A stretch of DNA of 64,000 bases from the IMG/VR virus record IMGVR_UViG_3300035507_000051, positions 1-64,000 of that record, one strand, 5' to 3'. Source of the stretch: a virus (taxonomy: Duplodnaviria > Caudoviricetes). Of this stretch, positions 5,759-63,362 are shown piece by piece. Made by a program: the position numbers and the translations under genes. How positions within the stretch are numbered: the stretch's first letter is position 1; every line of letters starts with the position of its first letter. The notes under the pieces are model-generated. The model had not been told where the DNA came from, did not search any database, and saw nothing but the letters and a program-made list of their open reading frames with translations.

Positions 5759-5762
5759 TCAT

Positions 5763-6192: not shown

Positions 6193-6212
6193 CTAACTTA
6201 AATTTAATGAAT

Positions 6213-6398: not shown

Positions 6399-6427
6399 AA
6401 TAACGCCAAATTGAGGGATGGTGGAAT

Positions 6428-6500
6428 GCTCCATTAGTTTAACTGGTTAAAATTCAAGCCTTGTAACCTTGAGTAGAAAGTTCGAGTCTTTCATGGAGCT
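6428..6500 (+). tRNA. tRNA-Thr(TGT)
   Basis: gctccat/atggagc; caagc-ct TGT aa-ccttg (C.C mismatch at 31-39). Confidence 0.85.
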
Positions 6501-6506
6501 CTAAAT

Positions 6507-6578
6507 GCAGAATTAGTATAATGGTTATTATGCCAGACTTCCAATCTGGATATGAGGGTTCGATTCCCTTATTCTGCT
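6507..6578 (+). tRNA. tRNA-Gly(TCC)
   Basis: gcagaat/attctgc; ccaga-ct TCC aa-tctgg. Confidence 0.92.
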
Positions 6579-6585
6579 CTAATTA

Positions 6586-6655
6586 TGCGGGGAGGATTGG
6601 TATCCCACTTAGGCTCATAACCTAGGCTAAGTAAGTTCGATTCTTACCCCCGTCA
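6586..6655 (+). tRNA. tRNA-Met(CAT), atypical short D arm
   Basis: ttagg-ct CAT aa-cctag; T arm gtaag/cttac; unpaired 1-72. Confidence 0.7.
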
Positions 6656-6672
6656 CTATTAAAGATAGAAGT

Positions 6673-37007: not shown

Positions 37008-37011
37008 TTAT

Positions 37012-37049
37012 TAAAGGTAAGCAATATATTTGCTTACCTTTTATTTTTT
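37012..37049 (+). terminator. Intrinsic terminator
   Basis: aaaggtaagcaa/ttgcttaccttt followed by T tract. Confidence 0.8.
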
Positions 37050-37059
37050 GACTTAAAGT

Positions 37060-37093
37060 GTTGATAGTTTCGCTGATTTTTACTATCTTTGTG
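37060..37093 (+). promoter_or_regulatory. -33/-7 promoter for the cargo operon
   Basis: GTTG-N20-TATCTTTGTG. Confidence 0.7.
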
Positions 37094-37118
37094 CTTAAAT
37101 AATTAATACAGTATTAAT

Positions 37119-39416
37119 ATGAGAAAAAATGGAATAACAATTGTTAATCCTTGGAATAAAGATGCAATAAACTAGCATTATTATGGAATTACTCCAGATA
37201 ATGTAAATCAATATGATTTGGGTGGTGCTTTGCAATTGGCTTAGACTGGCACTTAGCAACTAGCAGATGGAGTCAAGGAATTAAATAATATAGGAGATAA
37301 ATCCAAATAGTTAAATAATTAGATACAAAGTTCTAATATATCAGCAACTCAAGCTTCTAGCACTGCAGATTTATTAGCAGAATACAATGCCTATAACCCT
37401 TTAGCTAAAGTTACTTGGAAAGACTTTACAAATAAAGGAGGTATTGGAAGCACATTAACAGACATGGTAGGTAATGGAGTTTAGGGAGCTATGAGTGGAA
37501 GCTCTATGGGACCAATTGGAGCAATTGGAGGTGCAGGAATAGGTTTAGCTACTGGATTATTTACTAATCTAGCAGCTAAAGCTAAAGCTAAAAGAGAAGC
37601 AAAGGCTGCTAATATAAAAATAGCAGCAGCTAATATTAACAATTAGAGTATATTAGACAATAAAGCTATAGGTTTAGACAACAGAATGCTCAGACAGGAT
37701 TTAAATAATTTTACTGGCTGGGAAGCAGCTTATGGTGGGCCTTTAAATAGAGAATTTGGATTTGGGGGAAATATGCTTACTAATGGGTCTGTTTTTTCTA
37801 CAGGATTGACTTTTATAGATACAGGAGGTACTCATGAACAAAATACTAATGGTGGAGTACCTGCGGGAGTTAATCCACAAGATGGAATCCCTAATTAGGT
37901 TGAAGAAGGTGAGGTTATTTATGATGATTATGTATTTAGTAATAGGCTAAGAGTAGCTAAAGAATTAATGGAAAAATATAAACTAAATCCAGAAAATGGG
38001 AAAAATCCAACTTATGCATAGGCTATAAGAAAATTATCTAAAGAAATTAGTGAAAGGCCTAATGACCCTATAAGTAAGAATGGATTAGAGGCTATAATTA
38101 AAGAATTTGCCTAGTATCAAGAAGAAAAAAGAGCTAAGTAGTAGCAAAAGAAACAACAGTAGCAACAACAACAATATTAGGATCAAGTATTGCTACAACA
38201 AATGCAATAGGCTTAGATGCAATAGGCATAGGAATAGTAGCAATCCCAATTTGTAAATGGTGGATTAGTTAGAAGATTTGATGATGCTGGCTCTTTAGTA
38301 GATCCTACTGAAGGCATCATATATACTCCTGATGAAGGCAATTTACCTGAATTAACCGTGGTTTATACAAGACCCAACACACCTGCTCCAGTGCAAATTT
38401 CTGATAGAGGTCCAATAAATCCGGATACTCCATCTTAGCCTATAGATACTTTTCTAAATTATATTGAGCCATAGACTCCAATTACACCTCTAGTACCTGC
38501 TTCTCCAACTATAGATCCAAAAGCAAATGCTTTAGAAGTAATAGCAGAAAGAAAAAGTAATCTAGCAGCAGGAAAATAGTATTTTGTTTCAAAGAGAAAT
38601 CCCTATAAGGTTCTTACATCTCCTGTAGAATTAGCAACAAAAACTACTACACCAGAAAAGAAGGGAAAAACTTATTAGGATTTTCTTAGATTTGCTCCTG
38701 TAGTTAGTCAAGCGATTTAGGGATTAACAGATGCTTTTGGTTTTACCAATAGGCCTACTTTTAATTTAGGAAAAAGAATACTAGCTGCTAATAATGCAAT
38801 AAGAGATGTAGGTACAGAAGCTGTAGGCACTAAACTGGGATATAGGCCTGTAGATTAGTGGGCTGCTATTAATAATTTAAACGCGCAAGCTGCTGCACAA
38901 AGGGCTCTTATAAGAAACTCGAATAATAGAGTTGGGGCTGCAGGATCCTTATTAGCTGCTGCATACAATTAGAATAAAACTTTAGGAGAACTATATGCTA
39001 ATATGGAGAATGCTAATTGGAGTAGATTAGCTAGTGTAGCTTAGCATAATACAGGAATAGATCAGTCTAATAGACAGGCATTTGATCAAGCTGCTCAATT
39101 CAATGCAAATTAGGGAGTAAGAAGGGCTGCTAATATGATTACTGCTGCTTAGGCGGATGATGCTGAAGAAACTGCAGCTTATCAAGCAATAGCTAATAAT
39201 AGAACTAATTTAGCTAATACTTTAGGAGCTATAGGTAAAGAAAGACTTGAAAGAGGTATGCTAAAAGCTCTAATTAAATCTGGATATGCAGGAACTCCTA
39301 ACCAGGCTTTAATAGCTGCATTAGCTAGATATGGTATTAATGTAGGATAGCTTACTACTGGAGCTAAAAATGGTGGTAAACTTAATAGAAAAAAGAAAAA
39401 AGGATTGACTTATTGA
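37119..39416 (+). CDS. Cargo/ejection protein (765 aa)
   Basis: Gly-zipper hydrophobic segment; GGTHEQN..GGV..VEEGEV..YVFSNRL motif; poly-Q linker. Confidence 0.7.
38139..38249 (+). repeat. Poly-Gln tract of mixed CAA/CAG/TAG codons
   Basis: 10 TAG among 37 codons, interleaved with CAA/CAG. Confidence 0.85.
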
Positions 39417-39417
39417 T

Positions 39418-41271
39418 ATGGCAAGGATTATACAAAATAATGCACAGTTTAATCCATTCAGTTTTGATGAAATGCTTAAACCAGTAGCTTTATATGGAGA
39501 AGCATACAGAAGTCAAGAAGATGCTTTAGCTGAACTAGAAAATAAATCAGCTGTATGGGATGGATTATTAGATAAAATTAAAGATGCTAAAACTTACAAA
39601 AAAGTAAAGAAATATATAGATGGTATAAAAGCAGCATCAAGTGATTTATCTACAAATGGTTTATCTGTAGGTACTAGAAAAGCCCTACTAAATTTAAAAT
39701 CTTAGTATGGTTAGGAGATTGCTCCTATTGATGTCCTATATAAGAAAAGAGCTGAAATTGAATCTGACCAAAGAAAGATGGAAGCTGCAAATCCAACTAT
39801 AAGATTCAGAAGAAAAGCTGCAGAAACTAGTTTAGACGATATGTACAATAATCCTACATTAGATTTTGGTGCTAATTTTTCTGGACAAATGCTGCAGGAT
39901 GATGTGTATAAAGCAGTAGCTTCTATCAAAACTGCAATGCTTAGAGGAGATAAATTGCAGAGTATTGGATTACCTTTTTAGTATCAATAGAGGTTAGATA
40001 AAGGAGCTACTCCAGATGAAGTATTTACTGCAATGTTCCAATAGGCCTAGCAAGGAGATCCTAGCACAGTGAAATTTCTACGTTCTATAGTGTAGAATGA
40101 GGTAGCTTCTTCTGGAGTACTAGACTGGAATGATCCTAGTGCAGTTAATTATGCATATACTTGGGCTAATAAAGGTCTTATGGGTGCTATAGGTGAATCT
40201 GAAATGAAATACTTTACTGATCAATACAGTATGCAAGAAGCTTTAGCACAGAATGAGTGGAATAAAAAATAGCAAGAAGCTAATGCTGAAGCACAAAGAC
40301 TGAATGGTAATATACCTCTTAATTTTGATGATTTAGTTTCACCATTAGAGGGAGAAAGAGTGCCTGTAGAAATACGAGATTATGAAAATCTACAAAAATT
40401 AGGATATGGTTATGATCCATCTAAGAATAAAAAAGCTGGCTATGTAAGAATAGATGTGGGACCAGCATCAAGAAACAGAGATGCTGCTGGTGGTGACTAC
40501 AGAAATCAAAGTATAGATGTTAACTTTTTCTCTAAGGATGGTTTACTTCTATCTAAAAAAAGCGTAATGAGTTAGACTAAAAATACTTAGTATAAGGAGG
40601 CTATTGCTAGAAAATATGATGAGTTTAAGAAGTGGACTGAAAAACACATTACTCCAGTTAATGGCCATTATCCTATGTCTGCTTATAAAAAGTATTACGA
40701 TGGTCTATATGCTAATAAAGTAGAAGGAAGTAAAATGCTTTCTATGGTACAATTAAGATTAGATAAAGATACAATAACAAATATAATTCTGAGTAATGCT
40801 CAAAAGACTGTAAATGGAGGCATTACAGGAATAATGGAAGTAAAAGATTGGAATTCTGATGGATCTATGGAAACAAAAGGTCGCGTTAAATTAAAAACTT
40901 TGCAAAATGAACTTTCAAAAGAAGATGTTCAACCTTTGCTATATGTCCCAGGAACTGCAGCTACTAGAGGAGTAATTGTAAAGCTAGGTAAAAAGACATA
41001 TTTAATTCCACAAAATGTACTAGGAAGTATTGGAGCTGAAGCTTTTAATATTGATGTTCCCATGCTACAAACTGCATATCAAACTAAGCAAGATTTAATT
41101 AGTAGGTATGGCGAAGATGCTTATTATAAATCTCCTGAAGGACAAAAGCTAGAAGCCACCATTGATTAGGCGGGAGCTGCTTATGTAAGATCTATTACAA
41201 ATGCACTAGCTTTTGAATATAAATTAAATCCTTATCAATTAAATACAACAACTGAAAATTCTTTATAGTAA
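39418..41271 (+). CDS. Cargo/ejection protein (617 aa)
   Basis: Fragments in frame 1; FNPFSFDEMLKP N-terminus. Confidence 0.65.
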
Positions 41272-44200
41272 TGGCAACTAAAAAAGATATAACTCAGACT
41301 GGACCTAAAGCCCTTAGAGGTATCAGGAATCCAGACCTATATAATCAACAAAGTTTAGGATTGTCCCAAGAACAACTAGACAATCTTCAAAATTTAAATT
41401 ATAGAGCTACTAATAGAAATTTTGAAGTTACACATGGCCATGTTGGATATACAGGTCTTAATAAACCTACTTTCTATGCTCCAGGGATTAACAAGGATGT
41501 AGATTATGGAAGCTCGTCTTATGATAAAGATATTTTAATTAATCCAACTTAGTAGGATGTGCAAGATTATAGGTTTTCAGAACAATCTGGATTAACTCAA
41601 GCTCTTAATGGTGTCTTAAAAGGAACTTTACTTGCAGGTACTACTTTTGTAAATGGTACTGTAGGGTTAGGTATAGGATTAATGCAAGGAATTGCTAATA
41701 CTATAGATGGTGATAAAACTACGTCTTTTTGGCAAGGTTTGTGGAATAATCCTATAAATGCTCTTATGACTGAAGTAAATAATAAAGCAGAAGAGGTACT
41801 TCCTAATTATAGAAGCACAGCATAGAGTGAAGGTCCTTGGTGGGCATGGGATAATTTAACTTCAGCAAATTTCATATTTGATTCATTTGTTAAAAATATG
41901 GGATTTACTATAGGTGCAGTGTATAGTGGAGGTATCTATACTAAAGCTATTGACGCTGTAGCTAAATTGATAGGTACTGGTAGGATGGGTGCAGCTACTG
42001 CAGAAACTATAGCAGCTGGAGAAAAAGCTATGGAATCTGCTAGAGCAACTAAAGCTGCTAAAGCCACACTAGGTGCTTTATTAAGTGCCCATGCAGAAGC
42101 TACTACAGAAGCATACAACACCTACACAGATGGTCTAAAATTAGAGGATTAGAAAATTCAAAATAGATTTAATGAAGATTATAGAAAAATTGTTCATGAA
42201 TTTGAATAGGCTGGTGGTAAATTTGATTAGAATGGGTATCCAGATCCTAATTCAAATCCTGAAGCTTTTCAAAGAATGCAACAGCAAACTTCATTGGTCA
42301 ATACTAGAGTACAACTAGCTAGAGAAGAAGCTGATTCTAGAATGAGATAGGCTGCCACTATGGATGGTATTTTAAATATCCCTATTCTATGGGTAGATAA
42401 TTTATTCATGATGGGTAAATATTATGCTGGAGGATGGAAAGCTGCTAGAAATGCTAATAAGACTGTAACTAGAGCAACTAAAGAAGCTATGAAAGATGCT
42501 AAAGCTGCAGCTGCTGCTGGTGATATGTCTAAATTAGAAAAACTAAATGAAATTGTAGCTAAAGCAGAAAAAACAGCATATAAAGGACTAACTGCAGAAG
42601 AGAGAGCTCTAGTAGAAGAAGTTCATCCTAGAATGTTAGGTAAAGTGGGAGGAGCTACTAAAAAAGCTCTTACTCCATTTGTTAGAGAAGGTAATGAAGA
42701 AATGTCTTAGGGTGCTGCTTCTCAGGCTAGTATTTACCGCTATGGATTAACAGATGATTAGATTGACAGAATATTTGATGGTAGATAGGATCCTGATGCA
42801 TAGTTAGAAGTAAAGGGGTTGCTAGAGTCATTGGTTTATGGTATTGGTGAATTTTATGGAGATCCATAGAATTGGCAAGAGGGTTTCATAGGAGGTTTAA
42901 CTGGTCTATTAGGTGTACCTACTTTTGGTAAAAGAGCTAATTCTACAGACCAAACTTACTTAGGTAGAAGTAAATGGATTGGTCTAACTGGAGGTGCTGT
43001 ATCTGAAGTTAAAAATTATTTAAAAGAAAGATCAGAACAAGATGCTGATGCTGTTAGAGCTACAGAGGTTCTTAGAAAAGGAAATCTAACTGAAGATCTT
43101 AAGCATTTAGTAGCTCAAACTAAATTTACTAAAGATTAGGAATTTGCTGTTATCCATGATGATGAAAAGGAGTATAAGGATGCTAGAACTGCTGCTATTT
43201 TTGAATAGATAGCCTATTTAAGAAAAGTAGGAAGAATGGATCTTTTAGAATCTCTCATGAATCAAATGGAAGGATTTACTGAAGAAGATGCTTAGACTAT
43301 TTTAGATTTAGCTACTAAAGAAGTTTCTGTAACTGCACCTAATATTCAAGAAAAAGTAAACTAGAAAAAACAGTTAGAATAGGAATTAGAGTAGCTTTTA
43401 CAATAGAAAGCTGAAGTAGATAGCTATGGAGCCACTTAGAGAGAATAGCTCCTAATTAATGCGTAGGATGCAGCTAATGAAGATTTAGGAAGTCCTGAAG
43501 ATAATCGTATGGCTTTTGAAATGCTTAGGTAGTTTAATCAGGCAATTAAACAAAAGCAGGACTAGATTGATATTTTAGATTCTGAAATAAGAGAAGCTAA
43601 GGCCACTACAATATCTCCATATGTGCATTGGGAAGATGGATCAATGTTTTCTAATGAAGAAATTTTACAAGACTTAAATAAAAGAGTTAAAAATGTAAAG
43701 AAGATTATTGATACTATAAATTTAGCTCAAGACTAGATTGATGAAGCTACTTCAGAAGTATTAACAGATGAACAACTAAATACTCTTACTTGGTATCATG
43801 TAATGATGAATGATTGGGTTGAAAGATCTGAAGGTATTACTACATAGTGGTAGTCATTAATTTAGAAAATAGTTGATGATCCCCAATTAAAAGCTATACT
43901 TGATGCTGCAGAAGCTGTAGAAGATATACTTAAAGAATCTGGATTAGATTTCAATAGTAATGAGATAAAGTTAGGAGGCAGATTTGATGCTAGTTTAACT
44001 TAGGCTAAACAATATAAAAAACTACTGGACAATTTAATACAGGCTTTAAATACTGGAGGTATGACAGTAGCTTATCTTTTGACTAGTGAAGATAAGGTTA
44101 AAGGTACTGATTTAAAAGCAGGTGAATTAATTATGAAGCAATTATAGGCTGTATTAAATACAAATGAATCTATAACTGCAGATGTAAAAGAGAATTTTAA

Positions 44201-47200
44201 TAAAGCCCTACTCGACTTACAAGCAATGGGTAAAAGCCATAGAAGGTATAATGAATTGCTTGATGAGTATCTTAAAAATCCAGAAAAAATTGATGAAGCT
44301 CATGCTGCCAGTACTAAAAAAGCTGAAGAGCAAGCAACTAATAAGAAAAGAGCGGGCATACTACAAAATATAAATTGGGAACAGCCTATTGGTAAAATAG
44401 CTAAATAGCTAGCAGAAAATGCAAATTCTATTCAAGATGCTGGAGGGTTTGACGAGCTTATTAAGGAACTATCTCCTGAAGAGTAGGCTATTGCTGAACA
44501 AGTACAAAAAGCTTTAATGACTTTAGATGCTGTAAATGACCTTATAGATAAATCTTAGCTTACCTAGGAACACGCCAATATTCTAAGAAAACTATTGGAT
44601 AGGTCAATAGAGGATCTTGAAGATCCAGAAAATTTGCTAGTAGATTTGCTAGAGCGCTTGAATGATGGTGGAGTCGATGATATAATAGATGACACAGTTC
44701 CTGAAGATGCTGGCATGGATGAAGCTCAGATGATAAAAGATGCTGCAATTTTGGCTATAAATGACTTCTTAGAAGATAACCTAGATGAAATAGTATCTGC
44801 TGTAGATGAGGCAGAAAAAGCTGAATAGAGAAGACAAGAAGAAGAAGAAAAAAGAATGCAAGAAGAAGCAGAAGCATTAGAGAATAAAGAAAAGAGTGAA
44901 AATGAGGATTTGGAGGAACCTGAAGAAAAAGATCCTGCAGATATAGATGATACTATACCTGAAGATGAATCTGAAGATGAGCTTTCTGATCCAATTGAAG
45001 ACACTACCTAGGAAATTAAAATTAGAAATAGGTAGGACACTGGACCACAACAAGGCTAGAATTGGGCTAAAGATAGTAGAAGAAGACAAATAAGTTAGTA
45101 CTATTTACATGGAGAAGATAAGCAAGAGCTTCCTGATTATTATGAATAGCATCCAGAATACATACCTAAAGGAGTAGATAAAGAAGCTTTTTTAAAGTAT
45201 GTAAAGGCCGTTCATAAATACCTTACTAATAAAGGGGCATATACTTATATTAGTGGAGTAAATTCAGAATATGCACTTAAAGTAGGAGATGATATTGAAT
45301 TTATTACAGATAAAGAGTTAAATGCAGAGGCTGGAGTTACTGTAATTCTAATGTAGGTTACTAATAAAGACGAGTAGAAGCAAATTATTGGCTCTTTAGC
45401 TACTTCTTTAGATTTTCAAACTCAAGACAGGGAAAATGGTAAGACGTTAGCAGAAAAATTTCCAGGAGATAAAGCTTTATATGATGCTCTCGTTAGAGAA
45501 TTACTAGATAAAGAAAGTGGAACTGCATCTACTATAACTACTAAAGTAGAAGCACTAAAAGGCGGGTATCCTTCTTTTAGTAAAAATAATAATTCTGTAG
45601 CTTCTGTATTTGGAGATAACCCAATACCAATAGCAATAGTAAAAAAGACCTCTGTAGCTAAATCATCAAATGTTCATGATGATGCTTGGCAATTAGTAGG
45701 CAGTAAACCAGGGCAAGTTTATGTTTATATAGAATCTAATAATGGCATACAAGTTCCTTTATTATGTACCAGCACTGCTTTGAGAGATTTAAGTGAGGAT
45801 GATTGGTACATATAGCAAACCTTAAATGCAGTATTAGCTCTTAAAGATACTGCGCAGTTAGGTAGATTAAAAATGAACTTATTAAAATGGTTGCCATTTT
45901 TAAAAAATTTACACATCAATATAATTCCAAAAGAAAATAATGTTAAATAGATATTATTTTCTTGGGGCAGTAATGCTGAAGGTAAAAACACTAATTAGTA
46001 TAGTATCACTTTAGAAGATGATGGTTCAATTCCTGAATATAAAGCTTTATACTTTATTAAATTTTTAGCTAGAACTAAAATTGAAACTTCTAAAAAAGAT
46101 AGAGGTGGAAATCCTGTTCAAATGTATCCAACTACTAGTGTAGATAGGCTCCGTCTTGATGATGCTGAATATGTAAAAAATATTTCTAGATATATTAAAG
46201 TAAATATTACTGAAAACACTCCCCATACTATTAATGACTGGTTTACATATGAAGCTACATCATATTAGACAGATAATCAGGCTCATAATAATCCAAATCC
46301 AGTAGTTCCTACAAATGGAGCTAGAAGAGCTAATCATAAAGTAGATACTCCAGATGGAGAAGTAGAAGTATCTCCTGCAGGTACTGTAAATGATAGTGAA
46401 GGTAAACCTTTAGATGAAGACAAAGAAGCTGCTGCTAGAGAATTCATTAATGACGATTCTACTGAAGTACCAGAAGATTTAGATAATGATGATGATAATG
46501 ATGCAGAATTAAGTCCTATAGCTACTAAAAGAAGAACTAAAGGTAGTCTCAACTTAGTAAATATCTTTAGAAGAAGTAGAACTAATAGAACTGGTAAACA
46601 TCTACTAACAACTGATACCTAGGATAATGTAACTGATGAAGAAACTTTAGCTAGTGATGAAGAAAAACTTAGAAAGATGTTTCCTAAATTGGCTGAATAG
46701 GGAAGGATAGTATTAGTGGATGGGCTTATTTCTATAATTGATAATGCAGGAAATCCTAAATAGGCTTATGGTTTATTTAGAAATGGAGTTTTATATATAA
46801 GTAAACAAAGCCCTGCAGGAACTGCCTATCATGAGGCTTTTCACTATGTAATAGATACTTTGTTAAAACAAACAGAAAAAGCTATTTTGTTTAAAGAAGC
46901 TACTGAATTGTTTGGCAATCTAGAAGAACTAGAGTTAGAGGAAAAATTAGCAGAGTCATTCAGAGAATTTATGAATGGTATGCAAGATCCTTCTATTAAA
47001 GGTAGATTAAAATCAATTTGGTAGAATTTAAAACATATAGTTAAATCAATTACTGGTAGAGAATCTTATATGGATAATCTATTTTGGCAAATGTATAGAA
47101 ATAAAATAGGTAAAAGGCAAGAAACTCAAGATAATCAAAATACTTATAAAGAAGAATTACTAAAATATAAGCAAGAAAAGCTTAAATATGATAATTTAGA

Positions 47201-47300
47201 TTAGGAAACTCAATAGTATATTCAAAAAAGGGGTTTCTCAAAAGTCAATTTTGATGACTTAAGTATAGAACAAAAGGAAAACGTACTTTAGTGTATGTGA
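41271..47300 (+). CDS. Giant ejected-type protein (2009 aa) with hydrophobic segments and C-terminal zincin peptidase
   Basis: Fragments in one frame; HEAFH at 46830-46844 plus EEKLAE. Confidence 0.75.
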
Positions 47301-47306
47301 GTAGAC

Positions 47307-47349
47307 AAAAAAAAATAAAGGGTAGTACAGTTAATGTACTACCCTTTTG
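47307..47349. terminator. Bidirectional terminator between convergent genes
   Basis: A-tract, aaagggtagtaca/tgtactacccttt, T-tract. Confidence 0.85.
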
Positions 47350-47353
47350 TTGT

Positions 47354-50300
47354 TTACTTACTTAAACTTTCATAATATGTTTCCATTTTTTCAGGATGTG
47401 CTACCTTTATAAAGTTACTTCTCCATGAAGGAACTTCCAATAATGCTTTATATGCAGTACTATGCCCCTTGTATGGCCCACTCTTGATTTCATCCATCCA
47501 TCTAAATGGATTAAGAACTCTTGTTAAATTTACCGTATCTTCAATTACTGAAGTATTTGCTATTGGGCTTTTTAAAATATTAATCATTTCTGTAGGCATT
47601 TGAGTACCTATAGTCAGAGCTCCTAATTCAGTTCTTTCTCTAAGCATAAGAGCTCTTAGCATTCTTTCTGCCCAACTTCTATCTTTCTTTTTAGATTTAT
47701 CCATACATACACATAAAATACTAATAGTTAAAAACTATGTTATTTCAGCCAAAGCTCTTTTTATATTAGCTTTTTCATAATCTTCTAGTTGATTCCAATT
47801 CCAAAGCAATCTTTTTTGACCATCCTCAGTTTCTTGTCTTAAACCTAATAAAAATTTAAATGTAGTTCTGTAGTATCCTTCAAAGTCAGTATCAGCTTCC
47901 ATACTATGCATTTTAGCTCCAAATCTGTATCTAAATTGACTAGGTATCCAATCTCTATACTACATTATAAATCTACCCCACAAATGACGTCTAGCAGCAA
48001 TAGAGTCTTCATCATTATATATACCAAATAGATGCTGATTAACATATCTAATTTTAGCTTCAAATTTAGTTAAATCTTCTTCAGTGAATTCACTACCATC
48101 TTCTTTAGTTATTCCTTCTTTAAGCACTAATTTATTGCCTAAATCAGGATCATTCTCTTTTATAGGTTTAACTTCTAAAGCATCCCATAGAGATATTGCA
48201 TTTCCATTAACATCCTTTAGTTTATATCTTAAAGACATAGCTATAGCTGTTCTGTTATATAACCAGAAGTCTCCAGCATCTTGCCCTAAAAACTGAATTC
48301 TGGGGCCAAATAATCTTCCTAGGATAGTTTTATTAATGAAATCCTTATTCTTAATATGCTTTCTAAAATCCTATTTAACATTAAATTTCTGATCAAACAA
48401 AGCTAATTTACTGTGCATAGTCCTAGAACCTATGTCTCCTACATAAGAAGTTAGAGCAGCAAAGAAATGTTTATCAGCGGATGCTAATTCTCTAGCATTA
48501 AACCATTGTCCTGCAGCTGCTTCTATATTCTACATACCTATACCAGTTAAAGCATTTGCTGCATTTGCTAGTGCATTAAAACCAAGCTATACAGCACTAC
48601 CTACTTTTAGCAATAAACCAGCAGCTTTATTTATATCTACTGAAGTATTTTCTGTTACTTTTATTTCCCCGTTATCTACTAAATATTTTTCATATACTTT
48701 AGATTCAAAAAAGTCGTTGAGTAAATTTCCAAAATTACTTTCTTTAGGATCTATAAGACCTTCAGTAGTGTTTGTTCTATCTCCAGCATTGTTACGCCCC
48801 ACTAATTTTCTATTACCTTTAGTTTTAGCAATTTTTCTTTTATTCATTACCCAATGTCTTCCAATCTCTAATGGAGTACAAATATCAGACATAGCTGAGT
48901 AGTTATAAGCCATATCAGCATAAGCTATAAGACTTCCTATTACATCATGTGTTAACTGTGAAGTATCTTTACTTTTTACATAATATATAGGTAGCTAAAA
49001 CACTTCTTCTGTATCTTGCATACCTACTAATCCATGGTATTGATTGGTATCATCAAAACTTCTAATAAAAGAGGCTTTAGCACCATCTATAATACCCTTA
49101 ATATTTCCCTATTTTATAAGATCTTTAGCTCTTTCTATTGCTGATTTTCTTATTCTAATAGTATTAGTAAGTGTGGTGGTACCTTCAGGTAATAGTAAGT
49201 CTAATTGCTCTTTTAGCTCCATCCATTTATCATAGAACTCTTGCTATATGGTAGTTAAACTAGAATATCTTGAAGGGTATACTTCATGGTTAGGAATCTA
49301 AGTTCTTTTTCCATTAATAACTATGTATTCTGTATTATCCTTTATCCACTTACTTAAAGCTTGAATTTTAGCTTTATATTCCTTACTACCAATCTAAGGA
49401 TGAGCTCCATACTAATTCTTTAATTCTTGCTCTTTCTATTTATATGCTTTATCATATGCACTTCTATCATAGGAGTAATCTTTCTTATCTATAATAAGTT
49501 TGTTAATGTATCTTTCATTTCCTTCTTCAAACATAAAATCATAGTTTTTAATGCCTCTCTTTTCATATTCTAAACCTAGAGCAATAATCTACTATGACAT
49601 ATCTATAGTTTTTAACCTCTGCTGAGTTTTAGCTGCTTTAACAACCTTATCAAAAGACTGCAGTAGTGTGTCTGGATTATCAGCTACACTAGTAAAAAAT
49701 TTTTGCATAAAATTCACATCTTTTCCTGCAGTAGCTATCATTTCTTTAGCAGATATAACTTTTAATCCCCCCTTACCATCTTGAATTTTTACAGTATCTC
49801 CTACAAATTTTGTTAAAAATGTAGTAAAAGAATCTAGTGCTTTTTTATAAAATGCGGAATTTAATTCTTGATAAATTGTATTAGTAGTAGACAAAGCATT
49901 TAGAATAAATTCTTTTGAATTACCTAGGCCATTAGTTGGGTCATGAGCTAATTTTGAGTATGACACATTAGGTCCAATTTCTTCTAGGTCTATTAAATCT
50001 TCTAAAAATGGATTAGCTCCTCTAAATTCTACTCCATCTTTTATTAACTAGTTACCTTCTTTACCATTGTACTTCTCATGCTTAATATTACTTACAGTAT
50101 ATACAGCAGTTCCAGTATTAGTACCTTTAGGTGCAGGATAATTTACCTTTATAGGAATAATTTTAAGACTTTTAATTTCTATACCATACTTATCTTCTAA
50201 AAATTTTTTATACAAAGATACCTATCTTGCATATTTATCTTGCTTCTCATCATCAATTTCTCCTCTATGAGTTTTCATATCATAGATGTACCAATTGCCA

Positions 50301-52321
50301 TCTTCATCATATCCTAATAAGTCTAGAGTGCCTGCTACTCTTACTGTATGAACATGCCCTTTGCCATCAGTAGTATCTACAGTACCTTCAATAGTTACAT
50401 CTCTAGCAATAAGAGTAATTCCATCTCCCTCTATGTCATTTTTTAATTTATTAAGCTAGTATACAAATGCATTTAGGTGTTTTCTATCTACATTAGGATA
50501 TACTACATCAAGCTCTTCTCCTTCAACTTTCCAAGTATCGCTATCAGAATCATAAGTAATTCTTCCTTGCATAAAATCTCTTACTAATTCATCTATTCCT
50601 GTACCTATATTAGTTGATGGTGTTACATAAGGATTTTTGGGATCAAAATTTTTACCTTCAAAATAGGCCTAAATTACTTGAGTAGTTCTCATATATTTAG
50701 CACCAGTTTTGATGTTTATATAATAAGTACCATCGTCAGATAATTTAATTTCTTCCGAGTGCTAAACTATTATATCTGCAATCTATTTTGCAGTTAGGTT
50801 TTTAGTATCTACTGTAGTTGTGGATTCTAAAGTTCTATAATCTTTTAGTACATCTTCAGAATCTTCTATTCTCATAAATTTTTGGCTTAGAATTACATCG
50901 TCTGACATAAATTCTTCACCTAAAACATCATATAATTCATTAATTGTAACTCCCCAATTTTTTAAAGCCAAAAGAGCATTCTTAAGAGTAGAAAATTTAT
51001 CAGATAGTTCAAGTTCATCTAAGTGCTCTAAAGAGGTAAATAACTATTTGACATCAGCTTGAGCTACATCTAGTAAATCAGAAATTGCTAACATAGTTTC
51101 TTCTTTTGATAAAGCCACATTAATGTCACTTGTTAGCTAAATTGCCCTCTTTTTTATGTCATATCTCTCTTTTCCATCTTTAGTGTTTTCCCCAAGAGCA
51201 GACTACTTATGCATTCTAGCAGCAGCATCTCTCACTACTTTAGCTTGGTCTTTAGCTTTTCCTACTAGTGCAAAAAATCTAGCTTCTCTTTTTGCTCTTT
51301 CTATATCTTCTTTTTTAATCTCTTGCTTTTCTGTAATAATATCTTTAGCCAGCACAGATAAGCCTCTTTTAATACTATCTATATTGTCCTAGTAATATGC
51401 TGGATTTAATCCCTTAAATAAATTTTTAATATAATTTTTAGCTCTAGTAAATATGGGAACTTTAGTATTCTAAGTGTTCATCTAGTTTCTTATCTCAGAA
51501 TTAAGTTCATTCTAAAGCATATGGCCTACAGCTTCTTCAGCAATTAGGGCAGTATCTCCCTAATAAACTTCATAGTAATCATCATACTTATCTCCAAGAA
51601 TTTCTCTAGCAGCCTATTCATTTTTTAGATAATTATATGCTCTTTGTACTACGGGCCTTTCTATATATATTCTAGTTAGCAAATGTGCAAATTCTTCAGA
51701 AAATGCTTCTACACCTTCCATATTATCAGCCAATCTTATTAAGCTAGTAAATTCATTAGCTACAGATTTAGCATGATTAAAATTAGTTTCACCTACAATT
51801 CCAGCAGCAGTTTCTATAGAAGATAAATGAGTTACAGTAACTCCAACTTTACCTAGTATCTTAGATATAGTCTCATTTAACTGATGAATGGCTTTCTAAC
51901 TATTTGCAATTTCTTGATTAGCTTCAGTGTTAGGAACTAATCTTATTGTTAAATTTTTATCCTCGGTATAATCTACTATAGCTATATAGTCATTTTCTTT
52001 TTTCTCATTCATTTCCATTGCCTCATTTACAAGAATTCCTACATTCTCAATGGTATTCGGCAATTGTTTCATAGTTTTATTAGCCTACTCAAGTATAGTA
52101 GATTCTCCTATAGCTTTTCTTACAATAGGCAACTTCATTAAACTATTATAAGTAGGGACTCCCTCACTATCTAAAGTGAGGGAATCCTTATAATCGTTTA
52201 TGAAAGCATCTGTTACTATTTTATTAAAGATTCTAGATGCAGTAGCATAACCAAAGTTCTTTTTTAACTATTGAAATGTACTTGCACCTCTCTTTGGAAT
52301 AAATACACAAGATTTTCCCAT
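47354..52321 (-). CDS. Giant RNAP-adjacent protein (1655 aa) with degenerate zincin motif (EEFAH) and PD-(D/E)XK nuclease domain
   Basis: Five track fragments in frame; AGTLDLLGYDEDGNWYIYDMKT..(Q)VSLY. Confidence 0.75.
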
Positions 52322-52338
52322 AATTTTTAGTTTTTATT

Positions 52339-55300
52339 TTATCTTTTTGGTGGACATAATTTAGTATCTTTATCTTCAGTATCTGGATATTCATCAAGAT
52401 CTTCTTTTTTCTCATTAGGAGTATCATCTTCATCTATATCTAGATCTTCAGAATCAGGAGTTTCATCAAAATCTTCTTCTATATTTAATGAATTCTATGC
52501 TTCTATAGCTTCTAAAGCTTCAGCATCTTCTTCTAGTGAATCAGGATCTTCATCTTGAGGATCTTTTAATAGGTCAGGATCACCTAAGTCTGGTTCTGAA
52601 TCTTCAGGAATATTTTCAATTTCTCTCTCATCTTCTAGATCTTTAGGTGCAGTTTCATCAATATCTCCATCTTCTTGAGGTACTCCTCTTTCAAGATCAT
52701 CACCTTCAGTTTCTGTGGGATCTTCAAGATCTCCTTCATCTTCTGGAGACTCTTTTTTAGATTTGTCTGAATCTTTATCTTTTTTAACTTCCTTAATGTC
52801 ACCAAAAGTTCCTCTTTTAGCTAATTCAGTCCAGTCAATTTCATTATAATTTTTATTCATATTGTAATACGGAATATTAGTAGTATTATAATTACATTTC
52901 TCATAAATACCCTTATCACTTACTTTTATCCAAAGAGAATTATTTGCTCTTACAAAAGTAGGTAAAACATCAAGCCCTTCAACACTTCCTTGAACTGCTT
53001 CTTTGCCATCTGTAGTCAAATTTAGTTTACCATCTGCTATTACATATAATTTTTGTTTACTATTCAAAAATGTAGTATACTGTGGATGATTAAGTAAGAA
53101 TTGACACACAAAATTATAAATATTAAAATCACCATTTTGTAATTTGGCATTACCTTCCTTTAATGAGTCTACAAATCCAGGCAACTGATTAAAGAAAGCT
53201 GTAGTAAAGAAAGTGCCAAAGTTATTGTGACTAAATGCAAGTCCACTGTTGTAATAGCTGTACATAAAAAGATCTCTAATTAAATCTACAATTTCAGGAT
53301 CTGGAGATTGCAATAAACTCTCAATATCTTTAACATAGTGCATTCTGTCTTTATTGCTAATTTTACCAACATTTTGCATGAATATACCAATGTTTTCACT
53401 TTGAGTAATCTTTCTAAGTAAGGTATATTTATCTTTTAATTCAGGGTGTGCTTTCATAAAAGAGTAATATTTCATAGGAAAATCATGAATGTAGTAATTT
53501 CTTTTATAAATCATACTATCTTCAGTATTTTCACCAGAATCTCCAAATTCAGAATAATAGGACAATAAAGCTTGAGTTAATTCATTGCATATTGTTCTAA
53601 GAACCAAAGTGTCTCCTTTACCAGTATATCTATAATGAGTTTGATTTCTAAGTACTTTAATTACATTATGACTAGAATCATTTGTAGTTAGTGCATTTAA
53701 ATTAGGAAAAAATCTAGCACTTAAAGTAAGTGCACTTTTAATACCTAAAGTATAGGCAGCTTGTAGTCTGGGTATAGGAGCTTTCAGTATTCTATATCTA
53801 AGAGCCTCCTTACTCATTAAAGTAGCATCCAAAGTTATATCTACAATCTTATCAAGACCTTGTACAGGACTATCTTCTTCTTTAGCATCTGCCATAAAGT
53901 CCTGTGCTCCAAAATACTGTCGAATAACCTCTGGCAAACTAACTTCCAATGCTCCGTTAGTAGAATCAGATCTAGAAACTTTAGATACACTATTCAAAGA
54001 TTTAGAAAGTGCTATAATATTTTGAAAAAATACAGCATATTGTGCAGCAAATTGCTGATTATGAGATTTTTTCATTTCCTCTTCAAAAGCTTCTTTATCA
54101 GTTCTCATTAAAGAAACTAGTTCTGCTAATTTGTTAGTGCTAATATTATAACTAGATGCAGCGTATACATTGCCATTATTTAATTTTAAATCTTCAAGTA
54201 CAAGTTTACTATATTCATAAAAATCTTCACTAGTATTTATTAAACCAATAGTTTGAGGATCTAATCCCATTCTAGCAAGTAAACCTATTCTAGTTGCAGT
54301 TTTTATATTAGCACCTATATCACCTAAACAAGGATCTTTACCATTATCTGGAGATGCTGCTTGGAATTCAGCAAGAATTCTACCAATTCTTTCTCCTGAT
54401 ATTATAGAGTTTTGAAGATCCAAATTTTTAAGTACTATTCCATCAATTTGTACTTGAAATGCAGGATGTATTCCTATATTAGCAAATTGCAATTTATAGT
54501 GATTAGATGAATTTACTGCAAACATACCAATGAGTGCATTTCCATCCATAAGATTTCTTTGCAAATCAATAGCATCAATTACATCTAGAGGATCTACAGG
54601 ACTGGCATATTTATCATAGAATTCTTCTAGGAATTTAGTATTATCACCTTTCTCATCTGCTCCTATGGAATTTAATGTTGTAAACAAACCATATTTATCA
54701 ATATCATCTGCATATTGTTTTTTAAATTCTTTTAAAGCTTTAGGGTTATGCATAATTCTTTGCTGTCTTGAAGCTTGTCTAACTCTATCAAAATTACCGG
54801 GTTGCATCATTAGTTTAGAACCAGGTCTGCTTGTTAATGTATTCCAAATAACATCAATAAGCATGTTATTTCTAGTTGAAATTCTTTCATTTCTTTTTAA
54901 TGCTTCCTGTTTAGATATTTCATCAGTAGTTAAATCATTACCTTCATCATCTACAATCTTAGGTTTAAGAGTATCATACTTAGGAATATCATATTTTATG
55001 GATTTACTAGCGCCTCTAACTGCTAAGAATTCACTAAAGTCTGGATTAAACTTTTCTAGTTTCCTAATATCTTCATCTGTATATCCTTGCTTTCTGTTTC
55101 TATAAAGTATTCTCCAAAGGATATTGATTTCAGATTTAGTGAGACTAGTCTCTGCTTCTTCCTCTGATAATGCAGCTTCTTGTTCTTTCATGTAAGTTTT
55201 AAAGTCTTTACCAATCCATCTTTCAAATTCACTAAACAGCGCAGGTTTATAAGTAAATCTTTTAAATTCTCTTACCATTAAGAATAGTTTATCAATGTCA

Positions 55301-58300
55301 AAGTCAGTACCTGACATTGTAATAATATCAGAAGGTAGCATAATAGAGGTACCAGCAACTACAGGCATAAATCCTACAATTCTAATAGGCATTATGGAGT
55401 ATTTATCCTCAGTAGGAATTCTATATCCAATTACCTGAAGTAGCTTTTCAGCTTCTTTCTCACCAAAAGCAGCTTCCATTTTCTTAAAATTAATAGTTTG
55501 ATATCCTTCTGGTGTAGTTTCTAAGAAATCTGCATACATTTCTTTACAATATGCTGGAAGATAAGCTTCAATGTACTTTACACCATCAGACATATCTTTA
55601 CCATTATTATAAACAACATGCAGATTATCAGATAATCCAAAATTAGATACAAGCACTGAATTTCCTCCTTTTATTTTCTGCCTTTGTATTGCATTTTTGA
55701 ATGTAGAAAATATAAGAGCTTCAATTTTATTGCTTAAGTTAGGGCTATTAAATGGAAGCATAAATCCAGTACCTTCTTTATTGATTTGTAAAGCTTGTCT
55801 TACATCTTCTCCATATTGTGGATTTCCTTCCATCTTGGTAAATAGCATTTTTTGTAATGAATGAATATCTTGGAATTCATTACTTACTGCACTATAAGCA
55901 TCGATAAGATTATCAACTATAAGAGTATTATAAAACTGAACAGCTTCTTCTCTATTTAAAGTGGTAGGCTTACCATTTAATTCTAAAGTCATTGTAAAGT
56001 TTTCAGGAAGGTCAGCCATAATAATATTCTTAAGCTGAGATCCAAAAATAGCTTCTGCATCAATAAGATGATCATCAGAAGGCTGCACAATCATGTAAGA
56101 ACTTAATGGAAATTCTTTAAACATGATACTATTTTCACCCCCTTTAGCTGCATATTGCTGCTCTAAGGATGCAACTACTTCTTCTTTAGTCTTGTAAGCA
56201 TATTCATTTTTCTTTTCATTAAAATATTCTTGAGATATTTTTCCATTTTCTAATGCTTGAACTAATTTTCCTATATATTCTTTGTAAGTCTTAATATTTG
56301 TATCTCCTAAAATTTCTACTTTTCCTTCTTTTAAAGCCTTTTCAAATCTACTCTTGTTATAGTTTAAATCAAAAGGTGAATTGAATCCTACTTTAACTAC
56401 ACTATGAAAGTGTACTGCATCAACTCCATGATCTTCCATAAACTGCTGTAGGCCGAGCAACTTAGGGGATTTATTTAATGCAGTATTTAACATAGAAAAT
56501 AGTGCAGATAGCATGTATTCTGAGTTTTTGTGCTGTGTAGTTACTTTTTCCATTCTACCATTAGTAGATACAGCTTCAAAACCATAGAAAAATGGTTTAA
56601 TTGGATTCCACAATGCAAGAAAATCAGCAGCGGTTATAGTTCCTCTTTTGATATTTCTATAAGCATCTTCCATGCTATCAGTCCACTTACCACCTCTAGC
56701 TATAAAGATTTTTCTAAAAGAATCTAAAGATCTAAAAGACTGACCATCAGTACTACAGATTTTTTTGTAAGCTTCCAAAGTACCTCTAATCATACTTTTA
56801 TCAAACTCAGTTATATCATCAGAATCCATAAGAAGATTCTTTAAAGATTCAAAAGAATTAGATATGACATCTTCATCTTCTAAATACATAACCTTTTCTA
56901 TAAGATCTCCAATGATATTTCCTTGTTCATCTGTTTCTTTAGCAAACAATCTTTCTCCGCAAGCATATGCTTGCTTATTTCTCTTAATATAATCTTGATA
57001 ACTTTTGTAATAAGCTAAGTCACCTCCAATTAATTGTTGAATACTAGCTTGTGCAAGTGCATTATTGTAATAGTACTCAGTTAAATATTCATCAACTTTT
57101 TGAAGTTTATATTCAGTCTCTTTCTCATTGACTTCCTCATTATTTTCTTCATCTTGCTCTTCAGTTAGATTTTCTTCAGTTGAGAATAGCTCTTCATTCT
57201 TAGCAGCTTGTTGTGCCATTCTGCCATAGATTTCTAATTTATCTTCAGAAGATAATTTTTCTAGCATTCTAGCAGTTTGCTCTTCTAAATGGTCTTGTAG
57301 TATTTTCTTGAGCTCTTTGTCTCTTCTTTCTTTAAATTCAGTAGGAGACTCATTGCCTTGCATCTTACAAGCTTCTAAAACTATTTCTGCTTTAGTTTTA
57401 CCATCTACAGTTTCAGAATTTAACCAAGGAAAATATGTAAATGTGGCTCCTTTACTTCTTTTGTCATTGTAGTTTTCAATTTCTACTTGATTTTCTTTTT
57501 TATTCTTGACATCATTAATTCTATCAACTTCTTGAAGTAGATTCTTTACCAGTCTATTAAGAATTTCTCCTTTGTAATTATTTCCAGTAAATCTTCTACC
57601 TTTTAGCATTACTATAGCATCAACATCAGAGAAAGAAGGGCATGCATAATATCCATAATGATTACCATAAGTGTCATCATTAGCAGCCATATACGCATGG
57701 AATCTGCCAACCAATTGCATCTTAGCATCTACATTTTGTACACTATTTTTATCCTCACTTCCCATAAAGCTCAGCATATTTACATAAGCAAAGCTTTTTC
57801 TAAATGCATAGTCATTAGTTGAGTCATCCCAATCTTCTAGCCATGAATTTGCCCATCCTATAGGTTCTCCTTTTGCATTTCTTTCTCTAAAGAAGTCAAA
57901 ATTACCATAGTTTTTTGCAATCCATTCATTAGCATATTCTAAGTTATCAGTATTTTTTACAATATCTACTAAATCTGAAATAAAATCAGGAGCAGTATAA
58001 GTAGCTCTAGTAACTCCATTATGTCTAAAAGTCATAGTTACATATCCTTCAGAGGCTAAAGTAAGAGCTCCAGCCATAGCTAAATAAGCTCCCTGGAAAT
58101 CAGCAAGAAGGTTACTGCCTTTACCGTATGTTACATTTCCTGTTTGATTTACAATGATACTAATGCAGTTTAATATAGTGACTAATTTTTTTATTTGATC
58201 ATTAGATATAAGTGTAGCAATATCATCAAGCCCTTTTACTTCTTCTAGGGATTCTTCATCTATATTAGCAAAATCACCAAACAATGAATCTAAATTCATA

Positions 58301-60780
58301 CTGTTAGTATCTACACCTACATCATTAAGTAACCTTTCTAGACTTAATCTACCGAACTTTTTATCAAAGTGGTCATCTAAGCCCATAAGTAGATCCATTA
58401 CTTTTTTAATTTCTGCTACAGTAGCTGTGCCATTAAGGTAAGAATTTAATCTATTTATACACCACCCAAAAGGTTGTCTATTATAAAGTTTAAAATGAAT
58501 TCTTTTTCTTCTTTGTGCTGCAGTTTCATTTGCAGGTATTAAAGTCTTATCATCTTCAGCATACGCGGCATTAAACCATTGGTCTAGTTTTGCTAAATGT
58601 CTTAAATCAGCCTGGCCTGTAGCATCATATATAGAATCAATTCCTAATACTAATTTACCTTCATAGTTTGCTTTAACATTAGCTAGCAAATCTGCACTAG
58701 AGGTACCTCTATTTAAATATTTTAGTAAACCTCTTTCACTAATCATAGCACTTGGTACTTGAGCTCTTCTCATAGTAGAATAAAACTCACTTCTAGTATT
58801 TGGATCCCAAGCTTGAGGATTCTCTGGATTATAAACTAGAATATCCCTAAGATCGTATAACCAAGGATATTTTTCTATAGTTTTATCCAAAGTTTCAACA
58901 AACTGGTCTTCATTTTTCATAGAAGAAAATTCATCAAGCAGAATTCTATATGCAGTTAAAGCATCCATTCTAACTTTACCTCCAAGATCATCAAACACAT
59001 AATGCATAGGATTTTTATAATCTCTTTTAAAAAGAGAACCTAAAAGAGTTTTTATGTTAATAGATAAAGTTTTTGCTGGATCTAGTAGTTTATACTTAAC
59101 CATATACCCTTCCCTATTAGCATTAGGCTGATCCTCTCCATTATTTTCTGTATTTTCGTCTTCAGAGGCAATAACAGGCACTGTATCAAAGCTTAATTTA
59201 AGATTTTCGTTAAATTGAATCTCCCAAGCAGCCTCTTGACACAAAGCTACATATACATCAGGTTGCATCATTTGACTATAAGCTTCTACTAAGTGCTGTG
59301 CTCTAACTTTAGCTGCCTCTTTACCTCTTTTTGTCCACTTTATGATTTCACCATCTGCTTCATCAGTAAAAACTTGTACATATACTTTTTTTACTCCATC
59401 AGTATAGTCATTTCTACATTGTATTTCTTGAATAAAATCAGCACCTTCTTCAGTCTCTGGACTCATTAAAGTTTTTACTAATCTATTCATACCTTCTTGA
59501 GTTTTGCAATCTTCAACAGTATCAATAAATCTTTTTTGAATTCTATTAAAAATAGCTTCTCCTAAAGGTTTTCCTTCATACTTAAATGCACCTAAAGCGT
59601 AAACCCTTTGTGCTGCTTTATCTCCTCTGGTTAATCCCCTATAATGAGCTTCTTCTACTGCATTTCTATCTTTTAAATTAGTATAATACTCTCTAAGATC
59701 CTCTAGCTCATAATCAAGTTCTCTAGAGAAAGCTGAACTAATGTAGTGCTCTCTAGCTAATCTTTGCTCAATGTCAGGAAATACTTTAGAAAGTAGAGAG
59801 AAATCTTCAGTGTCTATAACTATTGGATTTAAATTAGGCCTTTTTGCATTTAAACTATCCAGTAGTTCTTTCTGCTTAGCTTCAGCCTTTTTTATAGCTG
59901 CTTCTTTTCTGGCTATAGTTTTAACGTTTTTAGCTCTTTTATTTAACTTTTGGATTTTAATATCTACTCCTCCATCTTTATTTGGGGAATACTGAGCTTG
60001 TATGCCCAATTGTTTATCTAGCATATCTAACAAGGCATCTGCAAATCTTTGTGGAAGATGCACATTTGGATCTGTAATAATTTCAGGAAATTGAATTTTA
60101 GTATATTTATTATTAAGCAAAAGCTGTTGTATTCTTGCAATAGCTCTTTTATTTGCTTCTATAAATATTTCTAAATCTTCATCAGTATCTTCAAAATTAT
60201 CAACCTCCTGCTTAAAAGTACCATTTACATTCTGATGATTTTTACTTAATACAAGACCAATTACATTCTTATTTAGATTTTTATTGCTATCAGCTATAAG
60301 AAATAGTCCATATCTTTTATCATTAGTAGATAATGTAGTACCATCTTTTACCTTAATAGTATCGCCAAGCTTTTCACCTGTAACTGCATTATCCGCTTGT
60401 AAACTGTAACCAGTTACAAATATAGTGTTAGGTGAAGTTCTTGGAGATCCTTTACTAGCTGTTCCTATACTAAATGTAGCATCTCCTAATTTGGTATTTT
60501 CTAAAGCTGCTTTAACTTCTGCCTTTGCTACTCTTGCTTTTGATATAGCTGAATTAATTAGATGTAAATCACCTTGTCTTGCTTTTTTCATAATGGCTTC
60601 TTGTGTTAGGTTGGTATCTGTCATTATACTAGTTATAACTGCCAATACTTCTTCAGAAGTAAGTCCTTTAGTTTCTGTTCTAGCCTATACAGCACCTAGA
60701 ACTTTTCTCCTAAAGGCTAACTATTCGTTAATTTCCTTTGTAGTATTTTTATTTACTACTGCACATTTTTTACTATTCAT
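52339..60780 (-). CDS. Virion-packaged multisubunit-type RNA polymerase (2813 aa)
   Basis: Catalytic GTDFDIDK (DFDID at 55291-55305), YRIPTE motif; ATG 60780 in frame through 2 TAG; TAA at 52339-52341. Confidence 0.92.
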
Positions 60781-62943: not shown

Positions 62944-63123
62944 TTACAGCTTAAATATTTTATCAACCATTTCTTCATTACACCATAGTTGTAATACATT
63001 TATACTACTATAAATACATAGACCTAATCCTGCCTTGAAATTATCTACGCATACCATGTAAGAACCTACAGCTATAACTGCTATATGGATTAGGGTTAAA
63101 ATTATTATAAGTTTCCAGCTCAT
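62944..63123 (-). CDS. Small membrane protein (59 aa)
   Basis: MSWKLIIILTLIHIAVIAVG..; ATG overlaps the thioredoxin TGA. Confidence 0.55.
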   Translation of the reverse strand: MSWKLIIILTLIHIAVIAVGSYMVCVDNFKAGLGLCIYSSINVLQLWCNEEMVDKIFKL

Positions 63124-63362
63124 TTTGTTAATTCTTTTAGTCTATCTAATGGAGTAATGCCAGGCAATTTAGTAGCTACATTGTTATCATCTAATATAAC
63201 TAGAGTAGGAATAGATCTAATTTTATATTCATCAAGTAAATCAGCATTAGCATCATCATTAATATCTACATTTACTATATCTACTCCTTCTAGTTCTTCT
63301 AGAATTCTGCCTTGCTGTTTACAAGGACCGCAAGTCTGTGAATAAAATTTAAGTATTTTCAT
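63120..63362 (-). CDS. Thioredoxin
   Basis: CGPC active site, SIPTL cis-Pro motif. Confidence 0.9.
   Translation of the reverse strand: MKILKFYSQTCGPCKQQGRILEELEGVDIVNVDINDDANADLLDEYKIRSIPTLVILDDNNVATKLPGITPLDRLKELTK

Follow-up and report, generated by a model that had tools for sequence, protein, structure and literature searches.

When read with TAG as glutamine, the 64,000-nucleotide window analysed here (positions 1 to 64,000 of the Caudoviricetes record IMGVR_UViG_3300035507_000051 from IMG/VR) contains an RNA-polymerase cargo block of three giant genes, which we refer to as A, RNAP (RNA polymerase) and C. Protein A (41271-47300, + strand) has 2009 residues and is a homologue of crAss001 gp47 and phi14:2 gp67, with a zincin HExxH motif at residue 1854 (46830-46844, +). 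The virion RNAP (60780-52339, - strand; 2813 residues) is a homologue of crAss001 gp50 and phi14:2 gp66 and carries the catalytic motif DFDID, of the metal-binding DFDxD type, at residue 1826 (55291-55305, -). Protein C (52321-47354, - strand; 1655 residues) is a homologue of crAss001 gp49 and phi14:2 gp65 and includes a PD-(D/E)XK nuclease-like segment. RNAP and C are spaced by 17 nucleotides, and A lies on the opposite strand, convergent with both. Upstream of A are the genes for the muzzle, cargo 1 and cargo 2 proteins (32511-41271, +; Pfam crAss_MUZ, E-value 1e-213). Cargo protein 1 (37119-39416, +; crAss_CARG1, 5e-47) and cargo protein 2 (39418-41271, +, just upstream of A; crAss_CARGO2, 2e-60) contain no cysteine.

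Sequence comparison identifies the three genes as the cargo block, with its RNA polymerase, of a crAss-like phage whose closest classified relatives are the Steigviridae. A tblastn search with the RNAP found matches in 98 phage records, the best being IAS virus (35% identity over 83% of the query), and identity to crAss001 gp50 was 26%. Protein C was 46% identical to its IAS virus counterpart and 32% to that of crAss001. The hallmarks of the block are all present: an RNAP of the gp50/gp66 type with DFDxD, flanking homologues of gp47 and gp49, and adjoining muzzle, cargo 1 and cargo 2 genes. PHROGs contained no family for A or RNAP, and Pfam none for RNAP, with sub-threshold matches only for A. 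In the two cultured systems the proteins are known virion components, with gp47, gp49 and gp50 identified as crAss001 cargo by mass spectrometry (Bayfield et al. 2023, PMC10172136) and gp67, gp66 and gp65 found in phi14:2 virions by the same method (Drobysheva et al., bioRxiv 10.1101/2020.03.07.982082). Their genes lie in the same neighbourhood as in the window (muzzle, cargo 1, cargo 2, A, RNAP and C). Unlike both phages, the window has an inverted A, recoded TAG and a 140-residue acidic tail on the RNAP.

Cysteines stand at exactly four termini in the window, those that meet at the A-RNAP and RNAP-C junctions, and at neither of the two outer ends. An earlier note on this DNA had described this pattern, and each of its cysteines lies where it was reported. 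Protein A has two cysteines (1499 and 2008), none of them at the N-terminus, and the second is its second-to-last residue (codon TGT, 47292-47294, +), so that the protein ends Q(TAG)-C-M-stop. Among the 16 cysteines of the RNAP are Cys6 (60763-60765, -), in the N-terminal sequence MNSKKC, and Cys2809 (52354-52356, -), 5 residues from the end and followed by PPKR. Protein C starts MGKSC (Cys5, 52307-52309, -) and has four cysteines, the last one 117 residues before its C-terminus. Given each protein's own cysteine count, the chance of all four placements is about 7e-7.

The survey took in 221 related loci, drawn from IMG/VR and GenBank (labelled L001 and so on), which cover four families of Crassvirales recognized by the International Committee on Taxonomy of Viruses (ICTV) together with environmental contigs. 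Open reading frames (ORFs) were called under the best-fitting genetic code of each locus, assigned to A, RNAP or C by BLAST comparison with reference proteins and grouped by 4-mers into clusters of roughly 70% identity; the counts of terminal cysteines in A, RNAP, C and their fusions are given per cluster. The terminal windows scored were the first 8 and the last 12 residues, and a locus was taken to obey the rule if cysteine occurred in the last 12 residues upstream and the first 8 downstream of each internal boundary and at neither outer end. Cysteine was found in the last 12 residues of 33/34 A clusters and the first 8 of 0/16, in the first 8 of 35/40 RNAP clusters and the last 12 of 44/45, and in the first 8 of 44/46 C clusters and the last 12 of 0/46. 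Among 775 other ORFs of the same loci, the corresponding frequencies were 4.0% (first 8) and 12.6% (last 12). Against this background the binomial tails for conservation were 1e-29 or smaller, with related clusters treated as independent. The terminal cysteines are thus conserved in orthologues across the four ICTV families sampled and their environmental relatives, as the earlier note's proposal required.

Nearly all misses were explained by an interrupting intron or homing endonuclease, by an ATG chosen upstream of the true start or, for one gene, by truncation at the end of the locus. Both missing C heads were start-codon calls, and L198 has its C-type cysteine at position 20. Defects are the probable reason for the split A in L010 and for the adjacent split RNAP in L212, in the latter case as indicated by L213, which is unsplit. 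The RNAP interruptions, found in many relatives, recur at two sites and involve inserts of roughly 0.5-1.3 kb, one site lying after IGYR (L009, L012, L014, L029, L040, L056 and L015) and the other in or just before the DFDxD motif (L075, which is cr116_1, L104, L107 and L118). The cr116_1 insertion, located inside DFD|xD, encodes a LAGLIDADG-type endonuclease. The artificial RNAP ends created at these sites lack cysteine, as expected for introns. The IAS virus RNAP (NC_049978, L001, 13663-22645) is annotated as two overlapping ORFs, a 'molybdenum carrier' and an RNAP, with ambiguous bases at the break; its close IMG/VR relatives L004 and L008 hold one ORF of 2946-2979 residues, and the split is probably a sequencing artefact.

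The same four terminal cysteines occur in the cultured phages, with a pattern clearer than that of the window and with cysteine scarce elsewhere in the proteins. In phi14:2, the single cysteine of gp67 is its last residue, gp66 has cysteines at positions 3 and 2179 of 2180, and the single cysteine of gp65 is at position 3, which makes the four terminal cysteines the only ones in the 5398 residues of gp67, gp66 and gp65 (chance, 1.5e-9). In crAss001, the terminal cysteine is the sole one of gp47 (2341 residues) and of gp49 (1349 residues), and gp50 has three, at positions 5, 1334 and 2404 of 2412. DAC15, IAS virus and cr116_1 also obey the rule. Overall, cysteine content was 0.05-0.3% in the cargo proteins versus 1.45% in the 775 other ORFs, a 5- to 30-fold depletion.

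These figures make it scarcely credible that the pattern reflects chance, composition or a nucleotide-level signal such as start-codon context or translational coupling. Such a signal might be suspected from the 17 nucleotides between RNAP and C, which place the end codons close to start signals, but the low chance values in the window and in phi14:2 and the excess over background in the clusters argue strongly against it. Each of the four sites uses TGT as well as TGC codons, and the tail cysteine of A is retained whether RNAP comes next or A is convergent, which points to selection on the amino acid itself. The exact position also varies among lineages while the residue is constant.

Natural gene fusions indicate which ends belong together. 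A-RNAP fusions accompanied by a separate C were found in Suoliviridae (cr4_1, cr109_1, cr114_1, cr50_1 and cr118_1) and in several environmental contigs. These proteins have cysteine at the C-terminus (9/9) and none at the N-terminus (0/8), and their C partner starts with a cysteine at position 3-5. In five of eight fusion cluster representatives, each over 4000 residues long, the C-terminal cysteine is the sole one, so no cysteine is left at the old A/RNAP junction. The reciprocal arrangement, an RNAP-C fusion after a separate A, occurs in p-crAssphage (gp45/gp44), cr127_1 and L196: here cysteine is N-terminal (Cys3 or Cys4, 3/3), absent from the C-terminus (0/3) and retained in the tail of the separate A. 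The cr127_1 fusion has no cysteine after residue 2015, and its RNAP/C junction maps to about 2480-2700. Fused forms such as p-crAssphage gp44 (annotated as RNAP plus RNAP subunit) and the Suoliviridae proteins of 4300-4900 residues contain the same domains in the same A-RNAP-C order, an order that the separate genes also follow in every phage where they are colinear. At a fused junction there is a peptide bond and no cysteine pair, whereas the window has three genes and both pairs.

A single ORF in L106 (10001-28903, +) encodes a 6300-residue fusion of A, RNAP and C and is elsewhere 97% identical to cr50_1. Another segment stands in place of the final 8 residues of A-RNAP and the initial 109 of C, and neither junction cysteine remains. 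This segment carries an HExxH motif. The contig (195 kb), in which two related genomes are found, may be a chimeric assembly, and less weight is placed on this triple fusion.

The cysteine pair also follows the boundary when the boundary moves. In L184, L199, L200 and L203, RNAP carries at its N-terminus the C-terminal zincin (HExxH) domain of A, and the pair is found at the new boundary, with a separate upstream protein bearing a tail cysteine in L199, L200 and L203 (this protein matches A in L199 and L200). In L184, L200 and L203 the terminal cysteines are the only ones in the ORFs seen. Across all cases, the number of cysteine-bearing ends is twice the number of proteins minus two, and these ends are always a tail and a head at an internal boundary. 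Because the pair vanishes on fusion and moves with the boundary, the A C-terminus can be matched with the RNAP N-terminus and the RNAP C-terminus with the C N-terminus. The linear A-RNAP-C order put forward in the earlier note is therefore supported by conservation, fusions and boundary shifts alike, and its expectation that the cysteines would be lost on fusion is borne out at whichever junction is fused.

This arithmetic also bears on the alternative that the terminal cysteines are not bonded to one another and instead anchor the proteins to another part of the virion (the portal, the capsid interior or cargo 1/2) or are modified as a packaging signal. One head motif and one tail motif would also suit a common receptor or enzyme, and the pairing is itself deduced from sequence. 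An anchor or a modification would nevertheless not be expected to follow the number of proteins in this way, to use a tail and a head at internal boundaries and to spare the outer ends throughout (0/16, 0/46, 0/8 and 0/3). Cargo 1 and cargo 2 lack any cysteine both here and in several relatives, and the triple fusion has an intact 6300-codon frame without junction cysteines. We consider this alternative quite improbable.

We found no fourth member of the series in the window or the surveyed loci, either in cargo 1 or cargo 2 or among the ORFs that precede A; cargo 1 and cargo 2 have no cysteine and the N-terminus of A never has one. In two p-crAssphage-like loci (L131:106-1434 and L136:91-1431), an ORF two genes upstream of A has a single cysteine 2 residues from its C-terminus. 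This ORF is probably a cargo 1 homologue. As cargo 2 and the N-terminus of A are without cysteine, it adds no link to the series, but its product might perhaps homodimerize.

The ends themselves are short and variable around the cysteine. The tail module places it 0-9 residues from the C-terminus, and tail motifs are common to A and some RNAPs. The head module consists of Met, 1-6 residues and Cys, followed by a short hydrophobic/polar pattern common to RNAP and C across lineages; BLASTP found no similarity between the RNAP and C heads of the window, and the common motif is visible only across lineages. In an alignment of 43 A tails the cysteine was the only invariant column, and in one of 47 RNAP heads M1 and the cysteine were the only two, with a mean column identity of 13% in these alignments. 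Likewise, the terminal cysteine was the only invariant column among RNAP tails, and Cys5 was invariant among C heads. Steigviridae-like A proteins have a conserved acidic helix before the tail cysteine. The last ~55 residues of A (47133-47297, +) correspond to a predicted small helical domain in its close relative L006, where AlphaFold2 modelled the last ~50 residues with a predicted local distance difference test score of 90-98 and the cysteine at the end of the last helix. The L006 RNAP head model has six disordered residues followed by a helical bundle. Foldseek found no match to the A-tail model in the PDB at an E-value of 0.001 or below. In this sublineage the RNAP tail is acidic: in the window its last 140 residues (52342-52761, -) are 44% Asp+Glu and poorly conserved, with the conserved cysteine at the end. 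A bacterial lipoprotein lipobox was considered for the head cysteines and rejected: they stand at positions 3-8, preceded only by Met and polar or basic residues and by no hydrophobic signal peptide of about 15-25 residues.

These dimensions leave little room for protein ligation or trans-splicing into a true polyprotein, which we regard as very unlikely. Inteins and native chemical ligation do use thiol chemistry at chain ends, and the natural fusions show that a peptide bond is tolerated at the junctions. But the 0-9 residues after the tail cysteine and the 1-6 before the head cysteine are far too few for the halves of a split intein, Pfam gave no intein or HINT match, and gp47, gp49 and gp50 are listed as separate proteins in the published mass spectrometry (PMC10172136).

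From these comparisons, we consider it probable that A, RNAP and C are joined head to tail in the virion by two thiol bridges, most likely disulfides. With A as the first link, RNAP as the middle and C as the last, bridge 1 would connect the C-terminal cysteine of A to the N-terminal cysteine of RNAP, and bridge 2 the C-terminal cysteine of RNAP to the N-terminal cysteine of C, giving one linear pseudo-polyprotein of about 6500 residues. The disulfides would presumably form after assembly or upon lysis or release. Cysteines so near the termini would keep each junction thin enough for an unfolded thread to pass through the tail channel, and the reducing host cytoplasm would then release the three proteins. 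In the fused lineages, a peptide bond would do the same job. Bayfield et al. (PMC10172136) went no further than to state that the cargo has to unfold in part.

A disulfide is favoured because each end has a single cysteine without a conserved second ligand, because crAss001 virions contain inter-subunit disulfides, which are located in the tail (PMC10172136), and because the depletion of other cysteines fits avoidance of mispairing. The same tether could instead use a metal ion (for example, Zn, Fe or Cu(I)) bridging the two cysteines, which the cysteine rule does not distinguish from a disulfide. A metal would need no oxidant in the anoxic gut, and A has its zincin HExxH about 150 residues upstream of the tail. 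However, there is one cysteine per terminus, no His, Asp or further Cys next to it is conserved in the head and tail alignments, most metals would be bound only weakly by a pair of thiolates alone, and disulfides are directly documented in crAss001 tails (PMC10172136). A metal bridge therefore seems unlikely to us.

Several points weigh against a disulfide-linked chain. The case for a bond is drawn entirely from comparing sequences, and oxidation would have to occur although phage assembly proceeds in a reducing cytoplasm and the gut is anoxic. The window RNAP has 14 further cysteines, so its composition does not exclude mispairing as it does in phi14:2. As few as three or four independent events may underlie the fusion lineages, and the p-crAssphage fusion retains Cys2220, roughly 30-130 residues from a poorly mapped junction (similarity there is too low for exact mapping). 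Loss of cysteine on fusion would also be expected if its role required merely a free chain end; pairing is favoured over such a role because the cysteines are always at a tail and a head and never at outer ends. Finally, a chain would require the three proteins at a 1:1:1 copy number in virions.

The published descriptions of the two cultured phages do not discuss such a linkage. The text of the phi14:2 RNAP preprint (bioRxiv 10.1101/2020.03.07.982082) contains neither 'cysteine' nor 'disulfide', and the crAss001 atlas (PMC10172136) reports disulfides only for tail and portal-vertex proteins, with no mention of A, RNAP or C cysteines or their linkage. Searches of the literature on Crassvirales or ejection proteins together with disulfides found no other relevant paper.

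Recoding of TAG affects the three genes unequally. A suppressor tRNA with anticodon CTA (6121-6193, +), which permits TAG readthrough, belongs to a nine-tRNA array (5195-6656) just downstream of a TAG-rich ORF of 1681 codons. Protein A has 53 TAG codons, including codon 2007 (47289-47291, +) directly before Cys2008, where relatives with the standard code have Q or H. The RNAP has only three, or 3% of its glutamine-type codons versus 31-48% in A, C, cargo 1, cargo 2 and the muzzle. Codons 20 and 32 (60685-60723, -) fall within the conserved head region and codon 2762 (52495-52497, -) lies upstream of the tail cysteine, so that none of the three is more than 52 codons from an end (probability about 4e-5 under random placement) and both cysteine-bearing ends are outside the TAG-free core. 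Recent transfer of the RNAP core as the cause of its lack of TAG is not supported, because RNAP (32-37%) and A (28-34%) are equally diverged from their relatives. Two recoded relatives with a separate RNAP were checked, L052 (TGA) and L187 (TAG); recoded stops were sparse in the RNAP of both but did not cluster at its ends, and end clustering as a general rule is not supported. The earlier note correctly placed the A tail cysteine directly after a TAG and that of RNAP beyond its last TAG, and took this to mean that both linkers need suppression. For A this is trivial given its 53 TAG codons; for RNAP it holds here and does not recur in L052 or L187.

A thioredoxin gene near the three giant genes, also reported there, is confirmed at 63120-63362 (-; PF00085, E-value 3e-11, CGPC motif). 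Its speculative link to the chain finds no support, as PF00085 had no match in the crAss001, phi14:2, p-crAssphage, DAC15 and cr50_1 records, all five of which obey the rule.

Two further features were observed in and around A and C. The 53-nucleotide gap between their convergent stops (47301-47353) contains a perfect 9-bp inverted repeat that includes G+C and lies between A and T runs, and in sequence it looks like a bidirectional terminator. In addition, the PD-(D/E)XK nuclease-like segment of C (residues ~511-791, about 49949-50791, -) cross-matches A-class references, and an internal segment of crAss001-type A (residues ~1715-1868) matches C-class references; these reciprocal matches suggest a domain common to A and C.

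The virion RNAP of coliphage N4 and other Schitoviridae (PMC13434306) has ~3500 residues, is ejected with two other proteins and holds injection, polymerase and packaging functions in one long thread. Like the RNAP of the window, this giant enzyme has to pass a short tail to begin early transcription. It differs in being a single polypeptide with a T7-like single-subunit fold, unrelated in sequence. We know of no terminal-cysteine tether in the N4 enzyme.

Clostridial neurotoxins and other AB toxins offer an analogy of mechanism (review, PMC6899712): an interchain disulfide holds the cargo through a narrow channel and is reduced by the cytosol. The likeness ends there, as the proteins are unrelated and the toxins have one bridge, not at chain ends, and no ordered multi-protein chain. 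Nothing in the window proteins suggests toxin activity. In polyketide and non-ribosomal peptide synthases, docking domains order giant subunits through a short C-terminal tail and an N-terminal head and are dispensable when the subunits are fused. Their contacts are non-covalent and the modules unrelated.

For annotation of Crassvirales, the tail and head cysteine pair marks a true gene boundary and a true start codon, and breaks without cysteine mark introns, homing-endonuclease insertions or sequencing errors. Beyond this, we see an even chance that the block acts as a covalent, redox-reversible 'protein train', in which terminal disulfides would replace peptide bonds and fix the A-RNAP-C order, 5000-6500 residues (more in some relatives) would exit the tail as one thread, and the host cytoplasm would cut it. 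If true, this would explain the near absence of cysteine in these proteins, the packaging of three giant proteins in fixed proportion, their fixed order of exit from the capsid and the occurrence of the block as one, two or three genes across families, and it would represent a mode of multi-protein delivery not described for any virus.

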